This document shows, piece after piece, positions 7,790 to 32,045 of a stretch of DNA of 64,000 nucleotides (position 1 is the first letter of the stretch; every line of letters begins with the position of its first letter). The position numbers and the translations under genes were made by a program. The stretch comes from a virus. The notes beneath the pieces were generated by a model, which was given only the letters and a program-made list of their open reading frames with translations, did no database searches and had not been told where the DNA came from. Location of the stretch: the IMG/VR virus record IMGVR_UViG_3300023063_000001, positions 1-64,000 of that record. One strand, 5' to 3'.

Positions 7790-8464
7790 TTACCAGCTAT
7801 ATGTACCAGCTACAACAGCGCCTGTCTGGCTTGATGAAGTGGTGAATGCTGCATTCAAGAATACATGATCACTCAAAGCACCACCTGCACCAATTGCCAA
7901 CCCTTGATAACCTCCCATTGTTGACGCTGCAATAGCTGTTTGAAAGCCACCATGAATATCAAATTGTTGACCTGCCACTGCTAATGCTGCTGCGGCTCCA
8001 GCTTTTGCTTCTTTAGCTTCACGTCGAGCTTGCCTTACATCATTACGCAATCCTGCTGTATCTGTGTAAAGACCATTAAGTTTGCTTGACATAGCATCAT
8101 TGATAACATCTTGATTTGCAAACTGTGCATCGTGTGCTGTCAAGCGCACATCTTGTGTGTCATTACGCTGTGTTTGAACAATAGCTGCCAAATCACTGTC
8201 ATCAGCACGAGCGCCTAATGATTGAATATTGGTAGTGTTTACATTGGTTTGTGCTTGTGTAGCTTGTTGACGCCCATCAAGGATTTGAATTGCAACACTG
8301 TTACCATATGTATATTTATTCAAGCGTGTTGTTTCTTGATTCAAAGCATTGTATGTAGGAGCACTATTACCATTGACTTTGCTATAGTCAAAGCCTTCAT
8401 CAGCCATTACAGAGCAGCTAGCGAAGGTGATTGCAGCGGCGAGCGGTAGCATAAAAGTTTTCAT
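7790..8464 (-). CDS. YadA-family trimeric autotransporter adhesin-like outer-membrane protein
   Basis: Sec signal peptide, coiled-coil stalk, AGAAAALA linker helix, four amphipathic beta strands ending in ...GTYSW (terminal aromatic). Confidence 0.8.
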   Translation of the reverse strand: MKTFMLPLAAAITFASCSVMADEGFDYSKVNGNSAPTYNALNQETTRLNKYTYGNSVAIQILDGRQQATQAQTNVNTTNIQSLGARADDSDLAAIVQTQRNDTQDVRLTAHDAQFANQDVINDAMSSKLNGLYTDTAGLRNDVRQARREAKEAKAGAAAALAVAGQQFDIHGGFQTAIAASTMGGYQGLAIGAGGALSDHVFLNAAFTTSSSQTGAVVAGTYSW

Positions 8465-8534
8465 TTGTGTTTCTCCTGTGTTTGAGACTGTATATTGTCA
8501 TGGTTTTGTGATGCAGTCAACAATATTTTATAAA

Positions 8535-8891
8535 TTAAATTGTATGTTCTATACAAATAATACCGCCATGCTCTTTACACATCAATGAACAAATAGGACA
8601 TGGCTTTGCATTGACAGGTTGATTTTTTGAATTAACACGAGCTACAACAAGCTTACAGCCTTTGCCTCTTGAGCGAATCAAAGCTAAGCTCTCCGCATGA
8701 CAGAATATTTTTAATTCCAACCCTACCTTTTTAGCGGCATAAAAATGCTTTACGTGGCTGCGGGTATACGAGTTTTTTCCCTCAGAGACAACGCGGTTTT
8801 TACGGTCTAAAACTACGCAATAAAGACGCATTTTACCTCGTTCATAAGGCATAGCTGATGCCATCTTTATGCAGTAGTCTAGTGGGTTCAT
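8535..8891 (-). CDS. Zn-dependent cytidine/deoxycytidylate deaminase-fold protein
   Basis: HAE and PCxxC (KPCPIC) motifs. Confidence 0.8.
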   Translation of the reverse strand: MNPLDYCIKMASAMPYERGKMRLYCVVLDRKNRVVSEGKNSYTRSHVKHFYAAKKVGLELKIFCHAESLALIRSRGKGCKLVVARVNSKNQPVNAKPCPICSLMCKEHGGIICIEHTI

Positions 8892-9744: not shown

Positions 9745-9907
9745 ACAGCCTCCACTTCCTTAAGCTCAAACACAAAGACACCCCCATTCTCTATATTGAC
9801 ATAGACAGGAAACATCGCCCCTAGATTAAAATAATCTACTGTCAGAATATCTCCTGCACGAATAGAGAAATAAGGGCTAGATAGGATACGTATTTGATCA
9901 CCTTGTT

Positions 9908-10141
9908 TCATTTCATCCGTGCCTTTAGCATTGCATCAGCTTGTTTATAAGCTTGCTCTGCATCAAGATCCATATCAACAAATCCCATAATAGATGCCCT
10001 CCCTTGCATATGTGCTGCTGCAAAATAGTCACGAAGAGTCATGCCTTCATAAGCACCTTGCTGTGACATATCCCCATGTCTGTCGCGAAGAACTACACCG
10101 GGACTAGGAAAAGCTGCACCACCATCCACTGAGTTAGTCAT
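9908..10141 (-). CDS. conserved phage hypothetical protein (GGxAFP...GMTLRDYFAA family)
   Basis: Motif familiar from many phage and prophage small proteins. Confidence 0.75.
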   Translation of the reverse strand: MTNSVDGGAAFPSPGVVLRDRHGDMSQQGAYEGMTLRDYFAAAHMQGRASIMGFVDMDLDAEQAYKQADAMLKARMK

Positions 10142-10391
10142 AGCTCAACTCCTTCAGCAATAAACAGAATGTCAATAGCTCCTTCAAATTCCATAACTTC
10201 TTCCATTGTACACATCATTGGATATTCTACAGTTTGTGTGGACCCATCAGCATATGTTACTAGAAATCTGTTCATCTCAATTCTCCTAAGCTGTTTGCTT
10301 TCTGTATCTGTATTATTGCTTAAGCGTAAGGGGTTGTATAATTGAATGTTTCTATTGGGGTGTGGTTAGTGATATATTATCTATATCTTTA

Positions 10392-11711
10392 TTAAACGCT
10401 CATCTTCCGCTGAATAATAGTACCATCTACTTCTTTCCAAGCTGCACCTACTGGAACAGGCAATGTAGAGTTAAACCGTTTTCTATAGCAATCCCCCATA
10501 GTGTCGCACAAAAGATTCATGTGCTCAACTTTTGTAATGAACGAATCATGCACAATGAGAATTGGATAACCTTTCTTAATAAACACCTCTACCACATCAG
10601 ATGCCAGATTACTGTCATGATTCTGCAATACCAAACCATAACTCTCAGATTTACAAAGAATATCTGAGAACTGAGGGTAAGCGTTAAAGATCAAATCAAG
10701 AACATCAGAGCCATTACCGAGCGTGTACTGTTCTTTATCTTCGTTACTTAGTTTATTAATGTGACGTTGTACAGCCCCACGAGCGCCTTTATAGTCTTTA
10801 GAGTTTAGCATGACATTCACAGCAAGCTTCACTACAGCACGATCAACACCATTATTTTCATCTGGAATCATGCCAGAATAAACATCAGTTGGAAGGTTGT
10901 CGCGATCAATGTCGTTCAGTTCACTCGCAATAAGAAAATGTAAATTGCCATAATCGATTTCACATACGTTACTGTCATCAATAGTGATATGCCAGCGACC
11001 GTATTTATCTCCAACTTTATGTTGCAAACCAAGAACATCAGCACGATAGAAACGCCCACCATGATCAAATGTTTCATTGAAGATACGGCAGTAGATGTTA
11101 GTCATAATGTCACCATTACGGTCACGAATAATATGACTTTCATTCAGCACATTAAGGTCACGCACAACCTTAGACATACGACGAAGGCCGGAATTACTTC
11201 GAAATACAGTTACAACTTTCTCCCCATCTCTTAGCTCAAGCGTGCCCAACTGGTCTACGTATTGCATTTGAGATTCCATCTTAACCTCTTCATTCCACAA
11301 TGCTTTGAATTTGTCTGTTGCTGTCATGTAGCTGCTCACACGTCTTTCTATGTTTTCACTGGCCTGACCAACAGAGTTGATAATATACCCGTTATCCTCA
11401 AGCCAGTCAACAGCTTTCTTGATATGATGGGAGGTAAGCCCTTTCTTGCTCTCCAAATTCTTATTCTTTCTTGGGTATACAAGTTTACTTTCTTTCTTTA
11501 AGCAACAAATAAGATTAGCAACAATAACATTAAGTGTAGTCTTATCTTCATAAGTCCACATACGAGTACAATTCATAACCTCTTGAGATACTTTAATATC
11601 ATACATCAATACCTTGGCATTAGAGATATGATTATTGTTATACAAGAGCAAGGGCTGGTATCTGATATTATCTTCATCTTGTTCTAGTACACTCCATACT
11701 TCTTCTTCCAT
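10392..11711 (-). CDS. PolA/T7-RNAP superfamily mini-polymerase (TV-Pol-like) with N-terminal wHTH-like region
   Basis: DHGGRFY, EIDYGNLH (motif A), RAVVKLAV (motif B), LQNHDS, LIVHDSF (motif C); AGGAGG RBS. Confidence 0.7.
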   Translation of the reverse strand: MEEEVWSVLEQDEDNIRYQPLLLYNNNHISNAKVLMYDIKVSQEVMNCTRMWTYEDKTTLNVIVANLICCLKKESKLVYPRKNKNLESKKGLTSHHIKKAVDWLEDNGYIINSVGQASENIERRVSSYMTATDKFKALWNEEVKMESQMQYVDQLGTLELRDGEKVVTVFRSNSGLRRMSKVVRDLNVLNESHIIRDRNGDIMTNIYCRIFNETFDHGGRFYRADVLGLQHKVGDKYGRWHITIDDSNVCEIDYGNLHFLIASELNDIDRDNLPTDVYSGMIPDENNGVDRAVVKLAVNVMLNSKDYKGARGAVQRHINKLSNEDKEQYTLGNGSDVLDLIFNAYPQFSDILCKSESYGLVLQNHDSNLASDVVEVFIKKGYPILIVHDSFITKVEHMNLLCDTMGDCYRKRFNSTLPVPVGAAWKEVDGTIIQRKMSV

Positions 11712-11968
11712 CTTTAGTCCTCCTATCCTCTCTTATTGGGTATGGGAAATTTTATAAAAAAAATAAGGCTACAGCCCACGTAGCATATAGCCTGTAGCTG
11801 ATTGACTACCAATTAAATTCATCTATTCCTCCTCACCACGCTTCTTCTCAAACAATTCTAAGTCTTTAATAAAACGTTCAACAGATTCTTTGTCAGCTTG
11901 AATCTCAAAGAATCTTGTGTCGTCTAGTTGATGATAGGTGGTGTCTAGTGTGAAGCTGTAAGAGTTAA

Positions 11969-12178
11969 TCATTTGTTAAGCTTGTCCATAAATTTATTCA
12001 CCAAAGCTTTGTTTTCAGATTTAAAGATTACCTTTTGATAATTCCTATCATCACCGTAGTTATCAGGCCAGTCCATTACAAACTGTGACCAGTGTTTAAC
12101 AAGCTGATATTGAATGTAGGGTTTACCAAACCAAGGTGTTTTAAATTCTGTTTGTATGGTGTATTTTACATTATTCAT
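11969..12178 (-). CDS. hypothetical protein
   Basis: 69-aa ORF. Confidence 0.55.
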   Translation of the reverse strand: MNNVKYTIQTEFKTPWFGKPYIQYQLVKHWSQFVMDWPDNYGDDRNYQKVIFKSENKALVNKFMDKLNK

Positions 12179-12181
12179 TTC

Positions 12182-12406
12182 TCAATCTCCTAAACGAATA
12201 GGTGGGTTATTATCAATCATGTATTGTACATCTTCCAAAGCTTTCTTGTGCCATGAATCATAAGCATTAGGTTGTTGGTAGACAGGCGTAATCAAGACCA
12301 ATTGATTCTTCAACTCATCCACACGTTCATGAGCACGATCAAGGAGTTTCTTTAGTGCAAGGTTTTCTCTTAAGGTCACTTCGTAAAGCTCTTTATAGTC
12401 AATCAT
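12182..12406 (-). CDS. hypothetical coiled-coil protein
   Basis: likely start MIDYKEL after GGAGG. Confidence 0.5.
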   Translation of the reverse strand: MIDYKELYEVTLRENLALKKLLDRAHERVDELKNQLVLITPVYQQPNAYDSWHKKALEDVQYMIDNNPPIRLGD

Positions 12407-12799
12407 TTTTAGCCTCCCTGAGAAATAAATCTGCATGTTCTTCATCATATTTCCATTTACTTCTTTCTGGATAAAACCATTGAACATGAATAAACATTTG
12501 ACTTTGTTTGACGACTCTACCAACTTTCTCAGGCCACCATGAATCTGTTACCTTGGCTCCCACCACTGCATCACCTATTTTCATCTCTACAGTCCCTTCC
12601 AACAGATAAGAAGATCTGTCTTCTGATACTCAGTCATTAAAATTTCCTTTTAGAGCGTGCTCAATAAAGAGGTTCACTAATCTACACGCCTCTTCAAACT
12701 TTTCTTCGTTATTGTCACACACCTTATAAAGAAGTGTTGTCAGTGCAGGCATCTTATATTTTGGATCTTTGGTATTCATTGCAATAATATCTATGTGGT

Positions 12800-13015
12800 T
12801 CATTCGTCTTCCCCTTCAATCTCATAAGCCCTGCCTGAAATTTCATCCTCCAACCAAATAATCAATTTTTCAGCATCTTGCCGTGCAAGGCATGTCCCCG
12901 CAGCTTTTTTATCACTTTGAAAGCCGATACCACTGAGCCAATTTTCATCATTAGGCAAGTCAACCAAATACATCTTTTTACCTGAATCCTTGCTGGCATA
13001 ATAAATTGTATACAT
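12800..13015 (-). CDS. hypothetical protein
   Basis: start MYTIYY after AGGAG; first gene of the leftward unit. Confidence 0.6.
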   Translation of the reverse strand: MYTIYYASKDSGKKMYLVDLPNDENWLSGIGFQSDKKAAGTCLARQDAEKLIIWLEDEISGRAYEIEGEDE

Positions 13016-13041
13016 TTCGTATCTCCTATTAATGTCAGCCA

Positions 13042-13167
13042 ATCATAGGCCACCCCACAATCTCTGTCAACAATTATTTTCAAACCCTTGTGCCAACACG
13101 TCTCCAGACAACCCTCGGAAAATATTTTCAGCACACCCCTTGACTCACCCTACAATTCTGGTAAGCT
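13042..13167. promoter_or_regulatory. divergent sigma70 promoter pair at the strand switch
   Basis: minus: TTGACA-17-TATGAT (13070-13042); plus: TTGACT-16-TAAGCT with TGn extension (13140-13167). Confidence 0.7.
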
Positions 13168-13198
13168 AAGAAAAACCAACAGACAAAGGGTGTACAAA

Positions 13199-14035
13199 AT
13201 GAGAACTGACTTTCAACTCCCAGCTATCTTTTCGGATACCACGCCGATTGATTGGACCTATACAAAACCTATATCCACCAAATCTATTCAAGAGGCATGG
13301 GCTACTGCCAATCCTGTCACCGTTCGTATGGAGGAATTTGGTTTACCTCAACAAGCTAATAAAAGCAGAGAATTGATGCAAAAGCCTAAATGCAAACGTC
13401 CATCACGTACAGATTTTATGATAAGGGGAAAGACGTTCTCACAATACCTTGAAAAGCGCTTTGTTGTGGACAATTTGGGGTTCAAACCGCTTGATACACT
13501 CTTGGCTGCATCAACAGACGGGGGAAGCATTATCGCCTCTGTAGTACCTCAAAACCCCGTAGAATTCTTGACATACTCCCATGAGCTTGGCCACGTCAAG
13601 AGCAAACAATATCAGCGCGGAATGGAATATGGATTCTCCCTATATAGCTCAGTTTGTGATAACACATTGGAGAATGAATTGAATGCTTGGGTGTGGGGAT
13701 TGAAATACTTCCGCCGTCTTGGTTTTACCTTGTGCAGTGCAGGGAAAGCCTTGGTTACAGAGACATTTTCCACATACACAGAGAAATGTACAAACAAAGA
13801 TTTCGTTGAATATTGCTGGAGCACTTTGTACAATAAGTTTGATATACAAAAACCGCAGCGCAAGAATGATAGTTGGAAATCATTTGAAAGTAACAGAATT
13901 CATGAGGCTTATTTCTACTATGATGAAGTTTCTCCTATCACAGAGCGAACAGAAATTGAGAAGCCTAAAGGCTGGAAGCCTTGGCATGATATGAAGCAAA
14001 AGCAGATTAAAAGGCAATGGAAACAGCAAAGATAG
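13199..14035 (+). CDS. putative Zn metallopeptidase (HExxH, IrrE/ImmA-like arrangement)
   Basis: HELGH plus downstream ENELNAW; ATG at 13199. Confidence 0.6.
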   Translation: MRTDFQLPAIFSDTTPIDWTYTKPISTKSIQEAWATANPVTVRMEEFGLPQQANKSRELMQKPKCKRPSRTDFMIRGKTFSQYLEKRFVVDNLGFKPLDTLLAASTDGGSIIASVVPQNPVEFLTYSHELGHVKSKQYQRGMEYGFSLYSSVCDNTLENELNAWVWGLKYFRRLGFTLCSAGKALVTETFSTYTEKCTNKDFVEYCWSTLYNKFDIQKPQRKNDSWKSFESNRIHEAYFYYDEVSPITERTEIEKPKGWKPWHDMKQKQIKRQWKQQR

Positions 14036-14311
14036 GGCTTGACTCATGGCGGATAGTGGTGGATACTTGGCTCCAACGAAACATAAGCGTGGGTTTAGAG
14101 AGAGGAAGGATTGAGATGGTTAATTTAAACGTTCTGGAAAAGCTGGTTGACACCGAAGACGCTCGATTGACTGTTGAGCAGAAAGTAATGGCTGAATATA
14201 ATGTCAATAAAGGTTTTGAAGCTTTCATTGAAGATTACTCAGGCTACACCTACCTTGTATTGTTTCAGGAAGGTGTTCGTAATGGTATTAAACGTCTCAA
14301 CCGTACAGGAC

Positions 14312-16195: not shown

Positions 16196-17950
16196 GTGAT
16201 GAGTAAAAAACCAGATGGAGAACTTTTGTATCACGCTGCCTGTATTGGAGACGACTGCACGTCTTCAGACGGGATGGCAGTATATATAAAAGAAATCGAT
16301 GGTAAGCAGATTCATGACGCTTATTGTTTCGTATGTACAAATTATTTCAATCACTCCCAGCTTGAAGAATTGGGCGTAAAGATCAAAGAGGGGAAAAACA
16401 AAGTGTCAGAAGTCGTAGACTTTACAAATATTCAAGTGATTCCATTTCGCGGCTGGAAAGAACGCGGTATTGGTCAACCGGTATCAACGAAATACGGAGT
16501 TCACACAGAGATTGAAAATAGTTTTGATGTAGTTGCTCGCTACTATCCTTCTACATCTGACGGCAAGCTTGTTGGATTCAAAAAACGAACTTCACCAATT
16601 AAAGACTTTGTTGGTATTGGTAGCACTAAAGCAACCAATGAGATGTTCGGGCAATCTGTCTTTGAAGCTGGTCAAAAATATTTAGTAATCTGTACAGGAG
16701 AGGAGGACGCGCTTGCGTTCGCTCAAGCATTATATTCAAAGAAAGACGGTACAGAATATTGGACACCTGCTGTGAGTGTAACGTGCGGTGACGGCAGTAT
16801 CATCAAACAATTCAAAGCTAATTTTGAATATATCAATAGCTTCTCTAAAGTTATCTTGGCATTTGATCAAGATGAATCAGCACAAAAGTATGTTGAGGAA
16901 GCTGCACGTCTATTAACTCCGGGTAAAGCATTTATTGCGAAGTTCCCACAAGGGGTAAAAGATGCCTCAGACATGGTTAAAGCTGGCCGCTCTGCTGAAC
17001 TGAAACAGTTGTTTTGGAAAGCCACTCCGTTTAGTCGAGTGGATGTATTGCACCTTAGTCAGATGTGGGACGACTTTGAAAGTGAAGATAATAATGTAAA
17101 GATTCCATTCCCTGCCTCATGGTCACATCTTAACGAGATGATGAACGGCGGTATGGAAAAAGGTGAAATTACAATCATAGGTGCATTAACAAGTATTGGG
17201 AAATCCTCAATTGTCAACAATGTAGTCTACTCTCTAATTGAGAACACGCATTTCAAAGTAGGTGCAATGTATCTTGAAGGCACTAAGCGAGAAGTTGTAC
17301 GCGACTTGTTGTCTCTTGATGCTGGGATGAACCTCCGCACAGTAAATCGTGAAAACGTAGATATTGAAGCTCTCAAGAGTCGTTTCTTTGAGAACCTTGC
17401 AAAGAAAGATCAATTCGTTTATGTTGATCACCAAGGCAGTATCTCAACAACAGAGATTTTTGATAAGCTTAATTATCTGGCTAAGGCTGAAAACTGTGAT
17501 GTAATTGTCATCGATCCAGTGCAGGCTGGTGTGAACAGTAGCGACAATGGTGCAATTATTGAGTTCATGGATACACTCTTGAAGTTTGCAAAGGAAACAG
17601 ACACTTGTGTGGTGGCGATCTCACACATGCGCAAGCCTTCTGAAGAAAATCCGCACGCTGTTACCGAATACCAATTAATGGGTTCGTCCAGCCTGAACCA
17701 AATTGCTTTCAATACAATTTTGATCAGCCGCGACAAGATGAACCCTGATCCAATCAAAAAGTCAGCCACTAAGTTGCAATTGGTTAAGTGTCGTCGTACA
17801 GGTAACACAGGAGACGCCGGATGGTTGCGATACGATGGTGCTACAACACATATGTTTGCAACATCTGATCCTTATGTGGAAGATATGCTACTAGATGAAC
17901 CACCATCAGCAGAAAGCTTAGAAGTTCCTGCATATATGGTTGACTTTTAG
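16196..17950 (+). CDS. T7 gp4-like primase-helicase
   Basis: N-terminal Cys4 Zn finger, TOPRIM (TGEED, FDQD, KDASD), SF4 helicase Walker A GALTSIGKS, IDP, SH.RK, KCR.TG. Confidence 0.92.
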   Translation: MMSKKPDGELLYHAACIGDDCTSSDGMAVYIKEIDGKQIHDAYCFVCTNYFNHSQLEELGVKIKEGKNKVSEVVDFTNIQVIPFRGWKERGIGQPVSTKYGVHTEIENSFDVVARYYPSTSDGKLVGFKKRTSPIKDFVGIGSTKATNEMFGQSVFEAGQKYLVICTGEEDALAFAQALYSKKDGTEYWTPAVSVTCGDGSIIKQFKANFEYINSFSKVILAFDQDESAQKYVEEAARLLTPGKAFIAKFPQGVKDASDMVKAGRSAELKQLFWKATPFSRVDVLHLSQMWDDFESEDNNVKIPFPASWSHLNEMMNGGMEKGEITIIGALTSIGKSSIVNNVVYSLIENTHFKVGAMYLEGTKREVVRDLLSLDAGMNLRTVNRENVDIEALKSRFFENLAKKDQFVYVDHQGSISTTEIFDKLNYLAKAENCDVIVIDPVQAGVNSSDNGAIIEFMDTLLKFAKETDTCVVAISHMRKPSEENPHAVTEYQLMGSSSLNQIAFNTILISRDKMNPDPIKKSATKLQLVKCRRTGNTGDAGWLRYDGATTHMFATSDPYVEDMLLDEPPSAESLEVPAYMVDF

Positions 17951-17994: not shown

Positions 17995-20181
17995 TTGGAA
18001 AAGAAATTCTTTAAGACCGATTTCATTTGGGATTTGGAAACCTACCCAAATTGCTTTACTTTCGCGGCTGTCTACGCTAATGGTCAAGGTATGCGAGCAT
18101 TTGAAATTAGTGACCGTAAGAATGAAGTTGATGAGATGCTTGAATTCCTACGCAAAGTTAAAGGCGGAGGATACCGCCTAGTAGGTTTCAACTCTGTTGG
18201 ATTTGATTACCCTATTCTTCACCACATCTTGCAGAAAGCTCGTAAGATTCATGGTACTGACAAGAAACTGAAAGTAACGGCTAAGGAGTTGTTTGATCTA
18301 GCACAGAAAACTATTAACTCAAACAAGGAGAATAAGTTTGGCTCTGCTGTCAAAGAAAAGGATGTGATTATCCCACAGGTGGACTTGTTTAAAATTCACC
18401 ACTTTGATAACAACGCTCGCTCAACATCTTTGAAAATGCTTGAATACAATATGCGTTCGACTAATATTGAAGACCTGCCTTATCCAGTGGGCGCTACCTT
18501 GTCAGATGCAGAAAAAGATAACCTAATCAAATACAACAAACACGATGTCATGGAAACACTCAAGTTCTATTGGTATTCTTATGAGAACCTAAAACTTCGT
18601 GCTGATCTGACTGATCAGTTTGGCTTTGACTGTACCAACTTTAATGATACAAAGATTGGTAAAGAGTTGTTTATTCGCACTCTTGAGAAAGAAGCTCCAG
18701 GTAGTTGCTACGTGAAAACAGAATATGGTCGTGAGGTAAGGCAGACCAAGCGAGATAAGATTGTAATTAAGGATTGTTTATTTCCTTATATCAAGTTTGA
18801 TCGCCCCGAGTTTCAAGCCGTACATAAATGGTTTCAGACTCAAATCATCACCGAAACTAAGGGGGTATTCAGTGATTTGATGGAACATCAGTTGGGTGAT
18901 GTTGCTAAATATGCTGAGATGGTTGTAAAGAAAAAGAAATTGTCCGATCCTGCTGGCAAAAAGAATAAGCGTTATATTCCCTCAGAGGATGTGATTACAG
19001 CCTGTAAGAAAGAACAACCTTTGGGTTGGCTTGAGGAAAAGGAGCTAAAGAGTCCTAAGGGTGCTAAGAGTTATTATTGGTGCTGGAATGTAGCTGAAAC
19101 ATTGAACGTAATAATCAATGGTTTTCGCTATGACTACGGCGTGGGTGGTATTCATGGAGCTACACAAGGAACTATTCGTAGCACTGAGAGTCGAAAGATA
19201 CGCACACTTGACGTTGCCAGCTACTACCCTAACATGGCAATCGCTAACCAAATTTACCCTAAACACTTGGGTAAAACGTTCTGCAAGGTGTACTCTGACC
19301 TATATGAACAACGTAAGGCAACACCCAAAGGGTCAGCAGCTAACGCAGCATTAAAGCTTGCTTTAAATGGTGTATACGGGGATAGCAACAATGAGTTCAG
19401 TCCCTTGCTTGATCCAGCGTATACAATGGCGATTACAATCGGCGGTCAGCTTTCCCTGTGTATGCTTATGGAAAAGCTAATTGATAATTGTGATGCGCGA
19501 ATTATCATGTGTAACACTGACGGCTTTGAGTACATCATTGACGTTGATAAATTTGATGAGGCTGATAAGTGGGTGACGTGGTGGGAAGATCTGACCAAAC
19601 TCCAGATGGAAGGCGATTCATATAGTCAAATGTTTATTCGTGACGTGAATAATTACACCAGCATTACAGAGTCCGGAAAAATCAAGCTTAAAGGAGCTTA
19701 TGAATATATGGACTTTGATAAGCTTGGTTGGCACAAGAACCATTCAGCAATGGTAGTTCCTATGGCTGTGAAAGCTCAACTGATTGATGGTGTAGATCAC
19801 GAAGAGTTTATTCGTTTGCATGAGAACAAGTTTGACTTTATGCTGAGGACGAAAGTACCAAGGAGTAGTAGTCTTGCGCTGGTAGTTGATGGTGAGGATA
19901 TTCAACAACAGAATATCTGCCGTTATTATCCAGCAAAAGAAGGTGGTGGTAAGTTGATTAAGCTTATGCCTCCTTTGGTAGAAGGAGGAGAAGTGCGTAG
20001 GTTGGGTATTGATACGGATTGGAATGTTAAGACGTGTAACAACATTCATGACTTCTCTTGGGGAGTTGACTATAAATATTACATTGATCAGGCAGCTAAA
20101 CTTATTGAAGCAGTGTCCGAGGATGTAACTGATAAGCAAGGTAAAAATTGTGAAAGAAGTGTGGAAACCAGTATTGATTAA
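17995..20181 (+). CDS. family B DNA polymerase with 3'-5' exonuclease
   Basis: Exo motifs DLETY, GFN..FDY, YNKHD; Pol motifs DVASYYP, KLALNGVYG, NTDG; TTG start. Confidence 0.9.
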   Translation: MEKKFFKTDFIWDLETYPNCFTFAAVYANGQGMRAFEISDRKNEVDEMLEFLRKVKGGGYRLVGFNSVGFDYPILHHILQKARKIHGTDKKLKVTAKELFDLAQKTINSNKENKFGSAVKEKDVIIPQVDLFKIHHFDNNARSTSLKMLEYNMRSTNIEDLPYPVGATLSDAEKDNLIKYNKHDVMETLKFYWYSYENLKLRADLTDQFGFDCTNFNDTKIGKELFIRTLEKEAPGSCYVKTEYGREVRQTKRDKIVIKDCLFPYIKFDRPEFQAVHKWFQTQIITETKGVFSDLMEHQLGDVAKYAEMVVKKKKLSDPAGKKNKRYIPSEDVITACKKEQPLGWLEEKELKSPKGAKSYYWCWNVAETLNVIINGFRYDYGVGGIHGATQGTIRSTESRKIRTLDVASYYPNMAIANQIYPKHLGKTFCKVYSDLYEQRKATPKGSAANAALKLALNGVYGDSNNEFSPLLDPAYTMAITIGGQLSLCMLMEKLIDNCDARIIMCNTDGFEYIIDVDKFDEADKWVTWWEDLTKLQMEGDSYSQMFIRDVNNYTSITESGKIKLKGAYEYMDFDKLGWHKNHSAMVVPMAVKAQLIDGVDHEEFIRLHENKFDFMLRTKVPRSSSLALVVDGEDIQQQNICRYYPAKEGGGKLIKLMPPLVEGGEVRRLGIDTDWNVKTCNNIHDFSWGVDYKYYIDQAAKLIEAVSEDVTDKQGKNCERSVETSID

Positions 20182-20716
20182 AGATGTACATGCACATTAT
20201 GCTGTAAGTAATCACGGACGTGTGTATGATTTGAAGCTAAATAAATACTCAAATTGGGGTGATAATGGAGCGGGATACAAAACCGTCTCATTGAAAACAG
20301 ATAATTACTCACAACCAAGAAAAGTATTTTATGTTCATCGACTTGTCGGATTGATTTTCATTGAGAACCCGAGTAAACTTCCTCAAGTCGGACACAGGGA
20401 CCACAACAGAGAGAATAATCGACAAGATAATTTGTACTGGACAACACCTAAACAGAATACTGCGGATGGTATTCGTGATGGTAAAATCAATGCAAAGAAA
20501 CGTCCTAATACAAAAAAACTGAACAAGGCACAGATCTGTGAAATTGCTTTACTTTCTAGCCAAGGGAAAGGTATAAACGAGATTGCAATTATGTTAGGCT
20601 TTCCCCGTACAACAATTTCTAGTGTATTTAACGGTCGTAGCAATTTTGAATTGTTTGATTTTGCTAGGAAAGAAATTCAAAATAATCCCTTGACCCACCC
20701 ACACAACCATGTATAA
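20150..20716 (+). CDS. free-standing NUMOD4-HNH homing endonuclease with C-terminal HTH
   Basis: EVWKP...YAVSNHGRV; VHRLV...HRDHNRENN..NL.W. Confidence 0.85.
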   Translation: MKEVWKPVLIKDVHAHYAVSNHGRVYDLKLNKYSNWGDNGAGYKTVSLKTDNYSQPRKVFYVHRLVGLIFIENPSKLPQVGHRDHNRENNRQDNLYWTTPKQNTADGIRDGKINAKKRPNTKKLNKAQICEIALLSSQGKGINEIAIMLGFPRTTISSVFNGRSNFELFDFARKEIQNNPLTHPHNHV

Positions 20717-25560: not shown

Positions 25561-26446
25561 TTTGGATTGGAAAGACAAGGCAATTGAACTTGCTAAAACG
25601 GGTAAAAGCTGGCGTAAGATTTCAGAGTTACTTGGGGTTGCTAGGTCTACTGTAAGTGATTATTTACGTAAAGAATTCAGTCAAGTGGTTCTAGATAATC
25701 GTAAATCATCTGAAACGTACTCTGTTCGTAAGAAAGATGGACCAGAGCATGATAATAGTAGGATTCTTTTGATTAGCGATCTTCATATACCATTTCACCA
25801 TCAAGATGCAATTGCTTTCTTACTGCATCTTAAAGAGAAATACAAACCTACACGAGTTATTTGTTTAGGTGATGAAGTTGACGGAGCAGCGCTTAGTTTT
25901 CATGACCATGACCCGGATCTGCCAAGTGCTGGCGATGAAATTCGCCAAGCTTTGCCTGTAATTGCCGAACTATTTAAAATATTTCCCAAGATGGATATTC
26001 TTGAAAGTAATCATGGAAGTCTAATTTGGCGGAAGGCTAAAGTATTTGGTATCCCTAAGCACTACATAAAATCTTACAATGAGGTTCTTGGTGTTGACGA
26101 TGGTTGGAAATGGAGCTTTGACTTAACAGTAGACCTGCCTAATGGTCAGAAGTGTTATATGCATCACGGTAAGACAAGTAATATTATTCAGCTTAGTCAG
26201 CAAATGGGCTCAGCGGCGGCTCAGGGCCACTACCATGAATCTTTTAAAATTGATTACTGGGGCAATAGTACGGGTTTGTACTGGGGAATGCAGTGCGGCT
26301 GTTTGATTGATGATAACAAACTGGCATTTAACTATAATAATGTAAATATTAAACGTCCAATTATCGGTACGGGTTTGATTATTAATTCACTACCTATCTT
26401 AGAACCAATGGTTCTTTTGAAGAATGGGCGGTGGGAAGGTGTTTGA
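25553..26446 (+). CDS. calcineurin-like metallophosphoesterase with N-terminal HTH
   Basis: SDLHIP, GDEVD, SNH, HG, GHYH; N-terminal GKSWRKISELLGVARSTV; TTG start after GAGGAG. Confidence 0.85.
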   Translation: MSDLDWKDKAIELAKTGKSWRKISELLGVARSTVSDYLRKEFSQVVLDNRKSSETYSVRKKDGPEHDNSRILLISDLHIPFHHQDAIAFLLHLKEKYKPTRVICLGDEVDGAALSFHDHDPDLPSAGDEIRQALPVIAELFKIFPKMDILESNHGSLIWRKAKVFGIPKHYIKSYNEVLGVDDGWKWSFDLTVDLPNGQKCYMHHGKTSNIIQLSQQMGSAAAQGHYHESFKIDYWGNSTGLYWGMQCGCLIDDNKLAFNYNNVNIKRPIIGTGLIINSLPILEPMVLLKNGRWEGV

Positions 26447-27005
26447 ACTAACACAAGTGATTCTTCATGAAGCTTTAGACTACAATAAAGACACCGGAGT
26501 TTTCACATGGAAAAGTAACAGACCTCTAAGCCACTTTAAAAATGCCCATGCACTCTGTGCATACCAAGGTAAATTTTCTGGTAAGGTTGCTGGGTATGCT
26601 TCAAAATATGGAGAGAAAGATTTATACTATCTTCAGATTAGAATTAAAGGCACTCTGTTTTTGGGGCATCGTCTAGCGTGGTTTTATGTAGAAGGGGTTT
26701 GGCCAGAAAAGCTTATTGATCACGAAGATGGAAATGGGTTAAACAATAAATGGGAGAATCTCAGAGAAGCAACCCCTATAAGTAATGGTCGTAATTGTGG
26801 TTTGTCTTCCAATAATAAATCCGGTGTCAACGGTGTTTATTGGAATAAAGCAAACAGTAAATGGATTGCCGAGGGTCACTATACGGAAGATGGAGTGCAT
26901 AAAAAGATTAACCTTGGTTCTCACTTAAGTCTTGAAGACGCTGAAAAAGCTAGATTAAAATGGCAATCTGAGCAAGGTGGGTTCACAGAACGACACGGAA
27001 AATAA
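26424..27005 (+). CDS. free-standing HNH-AP2 homing endonuclease
   Basis: HRLAWFY...IDHEDGNGLNNKWENLREAT; AP2-like SGVNGVYW...KW.A...LG. Confidence 0.85.
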   Translation: MGGGKVFELTQVILHEALDYNKDTGVFTWKSNRPLSHFKNAHALCAYQGKFSGKVAGYASKYGEKDLYYLQIRIKGTLFLGHRLAWFYVEGVWPEKLIDHEDGNGLNNKWENLREATPISNGRNCGLSSNNKSGVNGVYWNKANSKWIAEGHYTEDGVHKKINLGSHLSLEDAEKARLKWQSEQGGFTERHGK

Positions 27006-29655: not shown

Positions 29656-30637
29656 ATGAGTAACGCTGGTAAAGAAATGATGAGTCAATCAAAGTTTTAT
29701 ATGGGTTATTCCCGCTGGGATGAAATCAAGGGCGGTTATGAAACATGGGAACAATCAGTTTCCCGTGTAATGGATATGCACCGACAAAAGTATTCTTCTG
29801 TAATGACACCACAGCTTGAAGAGTATATTGCTTTTGCAGAACAAGCTTACAAAGATAAAGTTGTACTCGGCGCCCAACGAGCATTGCAATTTGGTGGTGA
29901 ACAATTATTCAAACACGAAACTCGTATGTACAACTGCTCAGTATCCCATTGTGATCGAGCCACTTTCTTTCAAGAGTGTATGTATCTTCTGCTGTGTGGT
30001 TGTGGTGTAGGCTTCTCAGTACAGTCACACCACATTGCAAAGCTACCCAAAGTTCATAAGCGATATGAAAAGAAAGTAAAAGTATTTCAGGTGCCTGATA
30101 CAATTGAAGGATGGGCTGATGCTTTTGGTGTTCTGTTCAGTAGCTACTTTGTAGATGGTGGTAGCTTTCCTGAATATAAGGGTTGCCAAGTTCACTTTGA
30201 TTTCAATAAGATTCGCCCTAAAGGTGCTTTGATTTCAGGGGGTTTTAAGGCACCCGGACCAGATGGCTTGCGTAGTGCATTAGTTAAGTGTGAAGCTTTG
30301 CTAGAAGCACTAGTTGAGGGTAAGACAGAGGCTGTAAGTGTACCTACCATCACAGCTTACGACTTTGTAATGCATATGTCTGATGCTGTATTAAGCGGCG
30401 GTGTTCGTCGCTCAGCTACAATTTGTATGTTTGATAAAGATGATGATTTGATGTTGAAGGCCAAGACTGGGGATTGGTTTGTTGATAACCCTCAACGCGG
30501 TCGTAGTAACAACAGCGTTATGCTAGTTCGTGATGAACTAAGCCGTGAAGAGTGGGCTAACATCATGAAGTCTGTTAAGGACTTTGGTGAACCCGGTTTC
30601 ATCTTCACAGAGAATAAAGAGTTCTGCTTCAATCCGT
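29656..30637 (+). CDS. nrdJ: class II (B12-dependent, monomeric-type) ribonucleotide reductase, exon 1
   Basis: YNCS, GCGVGFS, PDTIEGW, IRPKG, GGVRRSA, SNNS, GEPG; ends FNP plus the first base of the Cys codon. Confidence 0.88.
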
Positions 30638-30807
30638 AAAATTACATGCGGATTTAAAACCTTCTCTGATTGACTTGGAAGCCAAATATAAGGCGACAGG
30701 GCGCAAGGGTAATGCCAGCGTGAGAGACTAAGTGAGAGGGGCACTAAATAGTGTATGCGATAGTCCAGCGCACAGTCAGAACTATATTTGATTACTGACA
30801 GTGTGAG
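30638..30807 (+). mobile_element. ORF-less group I intron (170 nt)
   Basis: P1 with U.G at 5' splice site, P10, P3, P4-P6, P7 GAGACUA/UAGUCC, P8, P9, terminal G; removal restores NPCVEI. Confidence 0.92.
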
Positions 30808-32045
30808 GTGTAGAAATTGGTATGCTTCCAATTGCAGAAAATGGAGACTCTGGTTTTCAATTCTGTAATTTGACAGAACTTAATGGTAGCAAATGTGTGG
30901 ATAAAGAATCTTTCTTTAGGGCTTGTAAAGCCGGAGCTATTCTTGGGACCCTTCAGGCAGGTTACTCAAACTTTAAATACTTGTCAGATGCAACACGTCG
31001 CATTACAGAGAAAGAGGCATTGCTTGGGGTTAGTATTACCGGTTGGATGAACAACCCCGATGTGCTATTTGACCCACAGAATATGATTGATGGGGCCACA
31101 GTTGTAAAAGATATTAACTCTGTTGTTGCTATTTTATTGGGTATCAATCAAGCTGCACGGACAACAGCAGTAAAACCCTCTGGTAATGCTTCTGTAGTAC
31201 TAGGCACAGCTTCAGGTATCCATGGAGAACATAGCCCTAAGTATCTTCGTAATGTACAGATGAACGTAGGAGATGAGGTTACACGCATTATTACAAAGAC
31301 CAACCCTAAAATGGTTGAATCAAGTGTTTGGAGTAGTAATGGAACAGATGTTGTAGTTAGCTTCCCTGTTGAAAGTAAAGAGGGATCTATCTATAAATCT
31401 GATTTGATGGGCGTGAAGCAGCTTGAGTATGTAAAGACAGCACAGCAATATTGGATTGAACACGGTACAAACTATGAGCTTTGTGTTGACCCTGATCTTC
31501 GTCATAACGTAAGTAATACCATCACAGTTGATGATTGGGATGAGGTTGAGGAGTATATCTACAACAACCGTAAATGGTTTGCTGGTATATCCCTTCTCAG
31601 CTCTATGGGGGATCGCGCATATGCTCAAGCTCCATTCACAGAAGTATTCACTGCACAACAGATTGTTGATATGTATGGTGATAGTTCAATGTTTGCATCT
31701 GGTTTGATTGTAGGTGCATTACAAGCTTTTGGTAACAATTTGTGGATGGCTTGCGATACTGCATTGGGATATGGACTTAAACTTGACCCTGAAGATTCAT
31801 CAGACCTTTTAAAGCGTGATTGGGTACGACGTATCAAGAAGTTTGCTGAACGAAACTTTGAAGGTGATACTATGAAGCTTACGTTTATGCTTAAAGATTG
31901 TCATAATCTTCATAAGTGGGTGGGAATCAATAATAACTTTATTAATGTGGATTTCTCACAAGATTTGTCTCAGCAAAGCTATACAGAAGTTGATACAATG
32001 GGTAGCCAAGCCTGCGCAGGGGGTGTCTGCGAGATAAGCTTTTAA
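30808..32045 (+). CDS. nrdJ: class II ribonucleotide reductase, exon 2
   Basis: (C)VEIG, QFCNLTE, VKPSGN, HNVSNT, C-terminal CAGGVC; spliced product 739 aa; no nrdB nearby. Confidence 0.88.

Follow-up and report, generated by a model that had tools for sequence, protein, structure and literature searches.

Minimal family-A polymerases encoded on mobile elements have been predicted since 2008, and those known as TV-Pols were first described in such elements and predicted to be primases (PMC2579912). According to PMC7581432, CCPol-MP is the only one among these minimal enzymes to have been characterized biochemically, and it was shown to act as a primase (PMC10061031). Here, we describe a polymerase-like gene and its upstream element in a 64,000-nucleotide stretch of phage DNA (IMG/VR record IMGVR_UViG_3300023063_000001, positions 1 to 64,000; hereafter the window). 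The window is the first part of a phage genome that is complete at 83,571 bp and has direct terminal repeats. The gene lies at 10392-11711 on the minus strand (stop codon included) and is a single open reading frame (ORF) with an ATG start encoding 439 amino acids (aa). Its product matches PHROG 4756 (E 6e-49), a family annotated as 'unknown function'. A conserved non-coding element upstream of the gene is newly reported here and is linked exclusively to the gene. We tentatively favor a site-tethered polymerase, which would initiate at its own upstream element and either prime replication or make a transcript.

The assignment to the superfamily of Pol I and T7 RNA polymerase (RNAP) rests on predicted structure and not on sequence profiles, the Pfam families DNA_pol_A and RNA_pol being unmatched by the protein. 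An AlphaFold2 model from a 37-sequence alignment reached a mean pLDDT of 87.3 and a pTM of 0.83, with only residues 1-25 and 232-234 scoring below 50. Foldseek recovered 57 matches in the PDB at E<=0.001 (best 4e-5), and the matches listed through rank 50 were all family-A DNA polymerases. They include Aquifex, Bst, Taq, Klenow, apicoplast Pol and Pol theta. VIA, an aligner independent of Foldseek, matched model residues ~150-436 to both PolA enzymes (Z 15.1-12.9) and single-subunit RNAPs (ssRNAPs; Z 13.2-7.4). Among the former were apicoplast Pol (Z 15.1, 238 aligned residues, rmsd 4.0), Pol nu (14.8), Klenow (13.8) and T7 DNA polymerase (13.5). The latter comprised yeast mitochondrial RNAP (13.2), T7 RNAP (11.1), human mitochondrial RNAP (10.0), N4 RNAP II (8.4) and N4 virion RNAP (7.4). 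As the two groups differ by no more than about 2 Z units, the fold alone is silent on whether the protein is a DNA or an RNA polymerase. The next VIA matches (Z 6.4-5.5) were mostly winged-helix regulators such as GntR, MarR, Fur and others aligned to residues ~40-156. The best of these reached Z 6.4 (3u1d, 96 aligned residues), 6.3 and 6.1, which are modest values obtained with the full-length model.

The model thus predicts two parts. An N-terminal winged helix-turn-helix (wHTH) would span residues ~46-156 (11244-11576, minus strand), a segment that also has weak profile matches to PadR-type regulators (E 0.016-0.05) and the RPA32 wHTH (E 0.07). The polymerase core would span residues ~157-439 (10395-11243, minus strand) with thumb helices, the GR hairpin, a palm with motifs A and C, and fingers with D276 and R291xxxK295. 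Thumb helices are modeled at 141-154 and 174-191, the strand at 247-254 carries motif A and leads into a helix, motif C occupies the turn of a hairpin at 385-394, and GR falls into a hairpin at 208-222. In the model, these placements of motifs A, C and GR are those expected for a right-hand polymerase fold. Since residues 1-25 are of low confidence and residues 46-156 are winged-helix-like, there is no space for an exonuclease domain. A first-pass annotation made from the letters alone had proposed a half-size member of this superfamily with a wHTH-like N-terminus and without an exonuclease, to be tested by the presence of a right-hand palm. The model agrees with this proposal, with palm-type strands and hairpins carrying the motifs, and the size of 439 aa compares with 883 aa for T7 RNAP and 928 aa for Escherichia coli Pol I.

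Sequence comparisons were far less informative than the structural model. Pfam searches with the protein returned nothing above cutoff, DNA_pol_A (PF00476) and RNA_pol (PF00940) were absent even at E<=10, and NCBIfam yielded nothing useful. Across 106 relatives, DNA_pol_A was never matched and RNA_pol was matched once and weakly (E 0.0021). Searches of PDB sequences with phmmer and profiles found no polymerase. Aligning the 37-sequence alignment to the single sequences of T7 RNAP and Pol I with hhalign gave non-significant E-values of 0.55 and 0.14, respectively. A local hmmsearch against the same two proteins gave E 0.39 and 0.85, with the best local alignments falling on T7 motif C and Pol I motif A. 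The ESM Atlas returned look-alike clusters only, and one was automatically named 'family A palm domain-containing protein', which is a lead and not evidence.

The catalytic residues are strongly conserved in the family. Among 37 close relatives, the invariant positions include G218, G219, R220, Y222, R223, E251, D253, N256, H258, R291, K295, N303, Q363 and the stretch H388-D389-S390-F391. Across 125 diverse relatives (mean column identity 10%, down to ~21% identity), G219, R220, E251, D253, Y278, K295 and D389 are still invariant. H258, D276, R291, N303, S367, H388 and S390 are conserved in at least 90% of these sequences, and an alignment of 106 sequences gave the same picture. Because the catalytic-residue pattern is invariant across the 125 relatives, we argue for an active enzyme, and the 439-aa protein is probably a minimal polymerase. 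The winged helix contains invariant polar residues of its own in the 37 close relatives (N66, Y79, R81, R124 and S127) and equals the catalytic core in its degree of conservation. A catalytically dead polymerase fold serving only as a DNA-binding regulator could account for the missing sequence-level Pfam match and the unusual H258, N299 and N303, yet is highly improbable given that relatives of such low mean identity all retain both metal-binding Asp, the hairpin Arg and the O-helix Lys.

The motifs themselves resemble a mosaic of the two branches of the superfamily. The four motifs quoted in the first-pass annotation are present in the protein and, judging by the invariance of their key residues, no accident, with DHGGRFY at residue 216, IDYGNLH at 252, RAVVKLAV at 291 and LIVHDSF at 385. 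The T7 RNAP strings given there for comparison are equally real and were found in the translation from NC_001604 (DWRGRVY at 421, RSVTKRSV at 627 and LIHDSF at 809). In the GR hairpin, DHGGRFY compares with DWRGRVY in T7 RNAP and TATGRLS in Pol I. The segment preceding motif C reads LQNHDSNLA, against HSQDGSHL in T7 RNAP and MQGTAADI in Pol I, and motif C itself reads LIVHDSF, against LIHDSF and QVHDELV. Hairpin, pre-C segment and motif C hence look T7 RNAP-like. Motif A (EIDYGNLHFLIA) looks closer to Pol I (SADYSQIELRIMA) than to T7 RNAP (FDGSCSGIQH). Motif B reads RAVVKLAVNVMLNS, compared to RRSAKAINFGLIYG in Pol I and RSVTKRSVMTLAYG in T7 RNAP.

The positions that act in sugar selection are E710, F762 and Y766 in Pol I, the latter two corresponding to M635 and Y639 in T7 RNAP. 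The role of E710 and F762 is confirmed in PMC7581432, where the dNTP-using CCPol is reported to retain both. Based on motif spacing and weak local alignments, the equivalent residues of the 439-aa protein are H258 for E710, N299 for F762 and N303 for Y766. The Asn at the Tyr position is invariant in the 37 close relatives and conserved in at least 90% of the sequences in both the 125- and the 106-sequence alignments.

The conserved non-coding element spans ~80 nt (11726-11805, minus strand) and is the sole site in the whole genome recovered by a sequence-only model of the element, termed R1 (47.9 bits, E 7e-13). R1 was built from 23 element copies and searched against 811,208 bases, taken from the whole genome including the window and from 44 other loci. 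In order, the element comprises box 1 (GCTACAGSC), a spacer that usually contains ACGTGG or CCACGT, and box 2, which reads GSCTGTAGC or varies from it. A T-run comes next, then a spacer of variable length and YYATAYG with an invariant ATA. Alignments and a regular-expression check place box 1 (GCTACAGGC) at 11790-11798, box 2 (GGCTGTAGCC) at 11767-11776 and the invariant ATA at 11741-11743, all on the minus strand. The spacer contains ACGTGG in this genome, and the ATA precedes the ATG at 11711 by ~30 nt. Across loci, the ATA lies ~15-30 nt before the start codon and is followed by a purine-rich stretch (TATAGAGAG, TATGATAGAGG). A sigma-70 -10 box for the gene would need to lie farther from the ribosome site than this ATA does.

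The linkage between element and gene is tight. A plus-strand match to R1 at E<=0.01 was located directly upstream of the gene in 38 of the 44 sources with a homologue and upstream DNA. Twenty-three of these sources had trained the model and 15 had not, and as many loci are near-copies of each other the counts do not represent independent events. Minus-strand matches occur on the same spots because the element is a dyad. No match at E<=0.01 was found away from the gene in the 811,208 bases. No such upstream match was obtained for L030, L034 (E 0.051) and L035, nor for qdvp001, 2L372X and KASIA, which are distant phages. The element is kept in Vibrio phages HNL01 (112 kb) and 1.121.O (146 kb), which encode proteins only 35% and 31% identical, respectively; both copies were in the training set of R1, and the element had been spotted by eye in each beforehand. 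No significant match was recovered at the gene in qdvp001, 2L372X, KASIA, KP13-16, J2-1, PhAER-3 or 193E37-1. Partial upstream matches in 2L372X (E 0.15) and KP13-16 (E 0.22) were weak and not significant, and KP13-16 contained one unrelated match (E 0.0058).

The element was also considered as an RNA hairpin, and this reading was rejected for lack of covariation and for inconsistent folds. Box 1 and box 2 form standard pairs in 68.9% of cases compared to 70.2% in shuffles, and covariation is below that of shuffles. Predicted folds vary between loci, with a hairpin possible in several (-15.3 kcal/mol in the window and -21.3 kcal/mol in locus L001). Relative to L041 and L003, the central module is reverse-complemented in L042, L017 and L043, with the orientation of the T-run and ATA unchanged. 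Two length classes were seen for the spacer from box 2 to the ATA, and they differ by 11-13 nt, roughly the length of one helical turn. These sequence features fit, short of proof, a double-stranded DNA site read by a protein.

The gene occupies one of two divergent junctions in 35 IMG/VR loci. Site A adjoins the arm with the primase-helicase and the family-B DNA polymerase (PolB), as in this genome, and site B is the head of the structural arm. In most loci, the gene comes first or nearly first after the strand switch. Two copies are carried by each of three IMG/VR contigs and by one contig of a metagenome-assembled genome (MAG). On a maximum-likelihood tree of 39 copies, the site label needs five changes, of which at least four are forced by well-supported branches, although L034 and a few others sit on long branches with unsure placement. 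Copies of one genome can be sister clades. Gene and element hence move as a unit. No neighboring protein family was common to the 39 loci at blastp E<1e-4, a comparison at the sequence level. In cultured phages, the gene is found amid small early genes, and a helicase adjoins it only in qdvp001. Several of the cultured phages have two matching places per record. Klebsiella phage KP13-16 has another hypothetical gene (L050 1922-3274), ~450 aa in length and situated 0.6 kb upstream of the homologue; this gene may be a paralogue.

The distribution of the gene is patchy. Among 15 contigs at least 90% complete, which were picked by similarity of the terminase (TerL, 33-85% identity) and not by the gene, six carry it. 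Copy numbers range from zero to three, with one contig carrying three. As the other nine contigs are without it, the gene is accessory or replaceable in this phage lineage. In one carrier (G010, an 83.9-kb contig), the homologue is found in two pieces (C1:7328-8035 and 8141-8602) on the same strand, ~100 nt apart and with one TAG inside, which may reflect a frameshift, an intervening sequence or a broken copy. Stops were counted within homologue matches also in G001, G004 and G011.

The family as a whole is large. An exhaustive search recovered 2402 cluster representatives at E<=0.001, of which 434 remained at 1e-10 and 58 at 1e-30. A word-indexed search retrieved 86 relatives, ranging in length from 241 to 769 aa, and all of them lacked Pfam domains and informative names. 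Relatives at less than 60% identity were found in 41 deposited phage genomes infecting Vibrio (20), Aeromonas (13), Pseudoalteromonas (4), Klebsiella (2), Shewanella (1) and Pseudaeromonas (1), and all 40 listed annotations are hypothetical or blank. A scan of one genome per species matched four MAG contigs only, one of them phage-sized at 83.9 kb with two copies. No longer fused forms were found among close relatives, which is weak evidence. The ten longest relatives show no informative Pfam domain save one RVT_1 fusion. This metagenomic protein of 936 aa (P0219) has RVT_1 at 150-284 (32.3 bits, cutoff 29.6) ahead of a winged-helix and polymerase region at 609-927. In the main texts of the literature searched, neither a winged-helix-fused minimal PolA/ssRNAP phage family nor its element was described.

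We suggest that the protein actively polymerizes nucleotides on a template and is a member of the Pol I/T7 RNAP superfamily cut down to thumb, palm and fingers. The winged helix would bind the dyad boxes (GCTACAGSC ... ACGTGG ... GSCTGTAGC) 30-90 nt upstream of its own start codon, and the catalytic core would then open the neighboring T-rich/ATA stretch. A chain would be begun de novo at that single address and directed toward the gene itself. A short RNA or primer would be the most likely product, from which leading-strand synthesis by the replisome of PolB and primase-helicase could be launched or downstream genes expressed. Priming of this kind is familiar from T7 RNAP at the T7 origin and from mitochondrial RNAP on mitochondrial DNA, both of which prime leading-strand synthesis. 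De novo initiation is favored because the fold has such precedent, in CCPol-MP as well as in T7 and mitochondrial RNAPs at origins, and because the residues that select deoxyribose have been lost and motif C resembles that of RNAPs. The location of the ATA, which leaves too little distance to the ribosome site for a sigma-70 -10 box, likewise argues for it. One site per gene copy has the look of origins and initiators and not of a general transcriptase, and the gene-linked element therefore favors a site-specific initiator. The first-pass annotation had suggested a primase, an origin-specific initiator or a compact RNA polymerase. A stronger version is a new class of self-addressed polymerase of ~440 aa with a private dyad site, which would start de novo without sigma, helper subunits or a protein that binds single-stranded DNA (SSB) as partner. 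We regard such a class as doubtful.

Several observations weigh against initiation at the element. That the protein would bind the element is deduced from their linkage. The element could instead be the gene's own operator, terminator or 5' leader, as it ends in a T-run and can form a hairpin in several loci, and the strong hairpins in some loci make a terminator possible. No iterons or larger origin-like repeats were found near the element in the examined region 9800-14300. With the gene present in only six of 15 relatives, an essential initiator would have to be replaceable. The early-gene setting in cultured phages, with a helicase neighbor in a single phage, also counts against an essential initiator, and no partner gene is conserved at the sequence level, whereas CCPol needs MP to prime. 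Finally, the Tyr that Pol I and T7 RNAP have both kept is N303 in this protein, and the activity could therefore be unusual or weak.

The main rival explanation, which we consider somewhat unlikely, is a primer-dependent accessory DNA polymerase for gap filling, lesion bypass or recombination/repair synthesis. The winged helix would autoregulate the gene, with the element as operator or terminator. The best fold matches are indeed DNA polymerases and motif A, DY(S/G)NLH(F)RIA, is close to DYSQIELRIMA of Pol I, whereas motif C and the GR hairpin are T7 RNAP-like and the deoxyribose selectors E710 and F762 are replaced together with Y766. PadR/MarR-type winged-helix proteins commonly repress their own genes via dyad operators, and both the terminal T-run and the patchy distribution, which suits a dispensable function, are in line with this explanation. 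However, the element appears over-conserved for a simple operator considering that the proteins are 31-35% identical, and to our knowledge no repair polymerase is fused to a sequence-specific winged helix.

Also unlikely is a compact RNA polymerase that uses the element as its sole promoter, with positive feedback on its own gene and transcription of the co-directional operon, which is structural in site-B phages. DxxGRxY and HDSF match T7 RNAP, one of the 106 relatives has the weak RNA_pol match and none matches DNA_pol_A, yet N303 stands in place of the Tyr at T7 Y639. At only ~15-30 nt from the start codon, the ATA with its purine run would as a sigma-70 -10 box leave no room for the ribosome site, and it resembles T7/SP6-type promoters, where initiation occurs right after TATA. 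The position of the gene at or near the strand switch in most loci would suit such a role. A general transcriptase is nevertheless difficult to reconcile with one site per gene copy and no other in the genome, and nine of the 15 relatives manage without the gene. The phage genome also already contains other candidate promoters. Sigma-70-like promoters are over-represented in a pattern scan (19 sites compared to 7.75 in shuffles), the most enriched intergenic words in the genome are of the TTGACA type, and the part of the early arm that lies downstream of the gene contains such promoters as well. A search for long repeated promoter-like words was negative, no word of 12-16 nt occurs more than three times in the genome, and repeats across the whole window are chance-like.

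A selfish cassette that begins DNA synthesis beside its own gene and spreads by recombination between co-infecting phages is very unlikely. Gene and element do occur as a unit at differing positions in unrelated phage groups at zero to three copies per genome, homing-type HNH genes lie near several copies, and TV-Pols were first reported from mobile elements in PMC2579912. Against this, the surroundings of the gene showed no integrase, transposase, terminal repeats or target duplications, and the gene recurs at the same two divergent junctions, as homologous-flank recombination would explain equally well.

The phage genome is organized into four arms. A leftward arm of small genes from 13042 to about 120 includes the polymerase-like gene, whose neighbors are small ORFs of unknown function. 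At the head of this early cluster lies a predicted sigma-70-like promoter matching the consensus, TTGACA-N17-TATGAT (13042-13070, minus strand). The rightward replication and nucleotide arm encodes a C5 methylase, a Toprim-DnaB primase-helicase, a 728-aa polymerase, a gp2.5-like SSB, an exonuclease, ThyX and a split ribonucleotide reductase (RNR). The leftward structural arm runs from 69.7 to 33.2 kb with terminase, portal and tail genes, and a fourth, rightward arm contains PhoH, a ClpP-like protease and dCMP deaminase. The divergent primase-helicase (16196-17950, plus strand; Pfam DnaB_C E 1.2e-21, Toprim_2 E 6.4e-6) is the replication gene nearest to the polymerase-like gene, ~4.5 kb off. 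No origin-like repeats stood out in 9800-14300 or at the other divergent junction. The replicative DNA polymerase of 728 aa (17995-20181, plus strand) matches phrog_1252 'DNA polymerase' (E 3.7e-174). Its stretches DVASYYPN, KLALNGVYG and NTDG are presumably PolB motifs. It had zero Pfam or NCBIfam matches and one weak, unrelated match among PDB sequences (neogenin, E 0.4). It shares 50% identity with the BS46 polymerase (Acinetobacter phage), which is tabulated as PolB in PMC11348598, and by its relatives it is hence the family-B polymerase that had been noted beside the 439-aa protein. No RNA runs containing the stretch are listed, and the only matching run is leaf-litter metagenome DNA, possibly the source sample.

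Additional features were observed around these arms. The RNR is encoded by two ORFs on the plus strand (29656-30639 and 30822-32045) with a gap of 182 nt, which match the phrog_367 profile at 42-387 (N-terminal) and 397-666 (C-terminal), respectively. An intron, the loss of an insert or a genuinely split gene could account for this arrangement. Homing-endonuclease-like genes of the HNH/NUMOD4/AP2 type are located within the replication arm (20150-20716 and 26424-27005, plus strand), and ORFs related to this cluster of ORFs are located near the polymerase-like gene in several related contigs. The second divergent junction has a 1.47-kb gap with tRNA genes for Thr-TGT, Tyr-GTA and Asn-GTT (genome 69951-70196, minus strand; L045 5951-6196), and this is where related phages have the site-B copy of the polymerase-like gene. 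The divergent junction in the window contains an ORF of 315 aa with a TTG start (13088-14035, plus strand), which lacks a Pfam or PHROG match and is matched in one related locus. Its translation has a HELGH stretch, which we take to be a HExxH pattern as in zinc metalloproteases. A 224-aa ORF of the early arm (7790-8464, minus strand) has a weak C-terminal match to a YadA-like membrane anchor (E 3.1e-4, 21.2 bits, cutoff 22.7), which would be odd in a phage early gene.

The findings provide a large family of 2402 cluster representatives, present in cultured Vibrio, Aeromonas, Pseudoalteromonas, Klebsiella and Shewanella phages, with a candidate DNA target. If initiation at the element is true, the family would show a route from a Pol I-type core to a sequence-specific initiator. 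Given the mosaic motifs and the His/Asn/Asn sugar positions, it would then also bear on how the DNA- and RNA-polymerizing branches diverged, and a very small programmable polymerase for biotechnology could follow. If the self-addressed class were real, it would include the smallest known sequence-specific initiating polymerase of the Pol I/T7 RNAP lineage, and gene plus site would constitute a portable origin-or-promoter module exchanged and duplicated by phages. A merely autoregulated repair polymerase would be a modest gain for annotation.

Among known systems, the family-A DNA polymerases are the best structural matches of the protein and have the DYSxxxxR pattern of motif A in common with it. 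It differs from them by the absence of 3'-5' and 5'-3' exonucleases, a polymerase domain of only ~290 aa, HDSF in place of HDE, the replacement of E710, F762 and Y766, and the lack of DNA_pol_A matches in all 106 relatives. T7-like ssRNAPs, among them the two-subunit N4 RNAP II, match in core fold, have DxxGRxY and HDSF in common with the protein and equally lack the steric-gate Glu of Pol I. In contrast to them, the 439-aa protein is half-size, has no Pfam RNA_pol match and a Pol I-like motif A, and comes with one candidate promoter per gene and not many. The T7-type motif B (RSVTKRSVMTLAYG with Tyr at Y639) is absent, and the protein has RAVVKLAVNVMLNS with N303 instead.

CCPol-MP and the PolA-SSB systems resemble this locus in that a truncated family-A polymerase resides on a mobile genome where another enzyme replicates in bulk. 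Experimentally, CCPol-MP is a primase, and de novo initiation by this fold therefore has precedent. CCPol keeps the E710/F762 equivalents and uses dNTPs, whereas the 439-aa protein has H258 and N299. In the descriptions of PMC7581432 and PMC10061031, CCPol requires MP, a small partner with an OB fold, and is encoded in an operon with a helicase on SCCmec/Bacillota elements. The gene described here has no sequence-conserved neighbor, and its extra DNA-binding module is the fused winged helix.

The first-pass annotation had also pointed to a resemblance with TV-Pols, which was upheld for the core features and not for the context. As defined by Iyer, Abhiman and Aravind 2008 (PMC2579912), TV-Pols have a minimal PolA core with a thumb of two antiparallel helices, an Arg in a beta-hairpin, two Asp in the palm, and an Asp and RxxxK in the fingers. 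They are 400-600 aa long, without a nuclease domain, borne by viruses or mobile elements, and coexist with a normal replicase. The model of the 439-aa protein has the hairpin R220, D253 and D389, D276 and R291xxxK295, and no nuclease. A profile of the 106 relatives found no candidate in Microcystis phage Ma-LMM01, a listed TV-Pol carrier, although this blank is uninformative. The N-terminus is a winged helix with strands, whereas some TV-Pols have an all-helical domain. The gene has no D5-type helicase as fusion or neighbor, and no resolvase, integrase or transposase next to it. Outside the helicase and recombinase context of TV-Pols, the 439-aa protein has their defining core.

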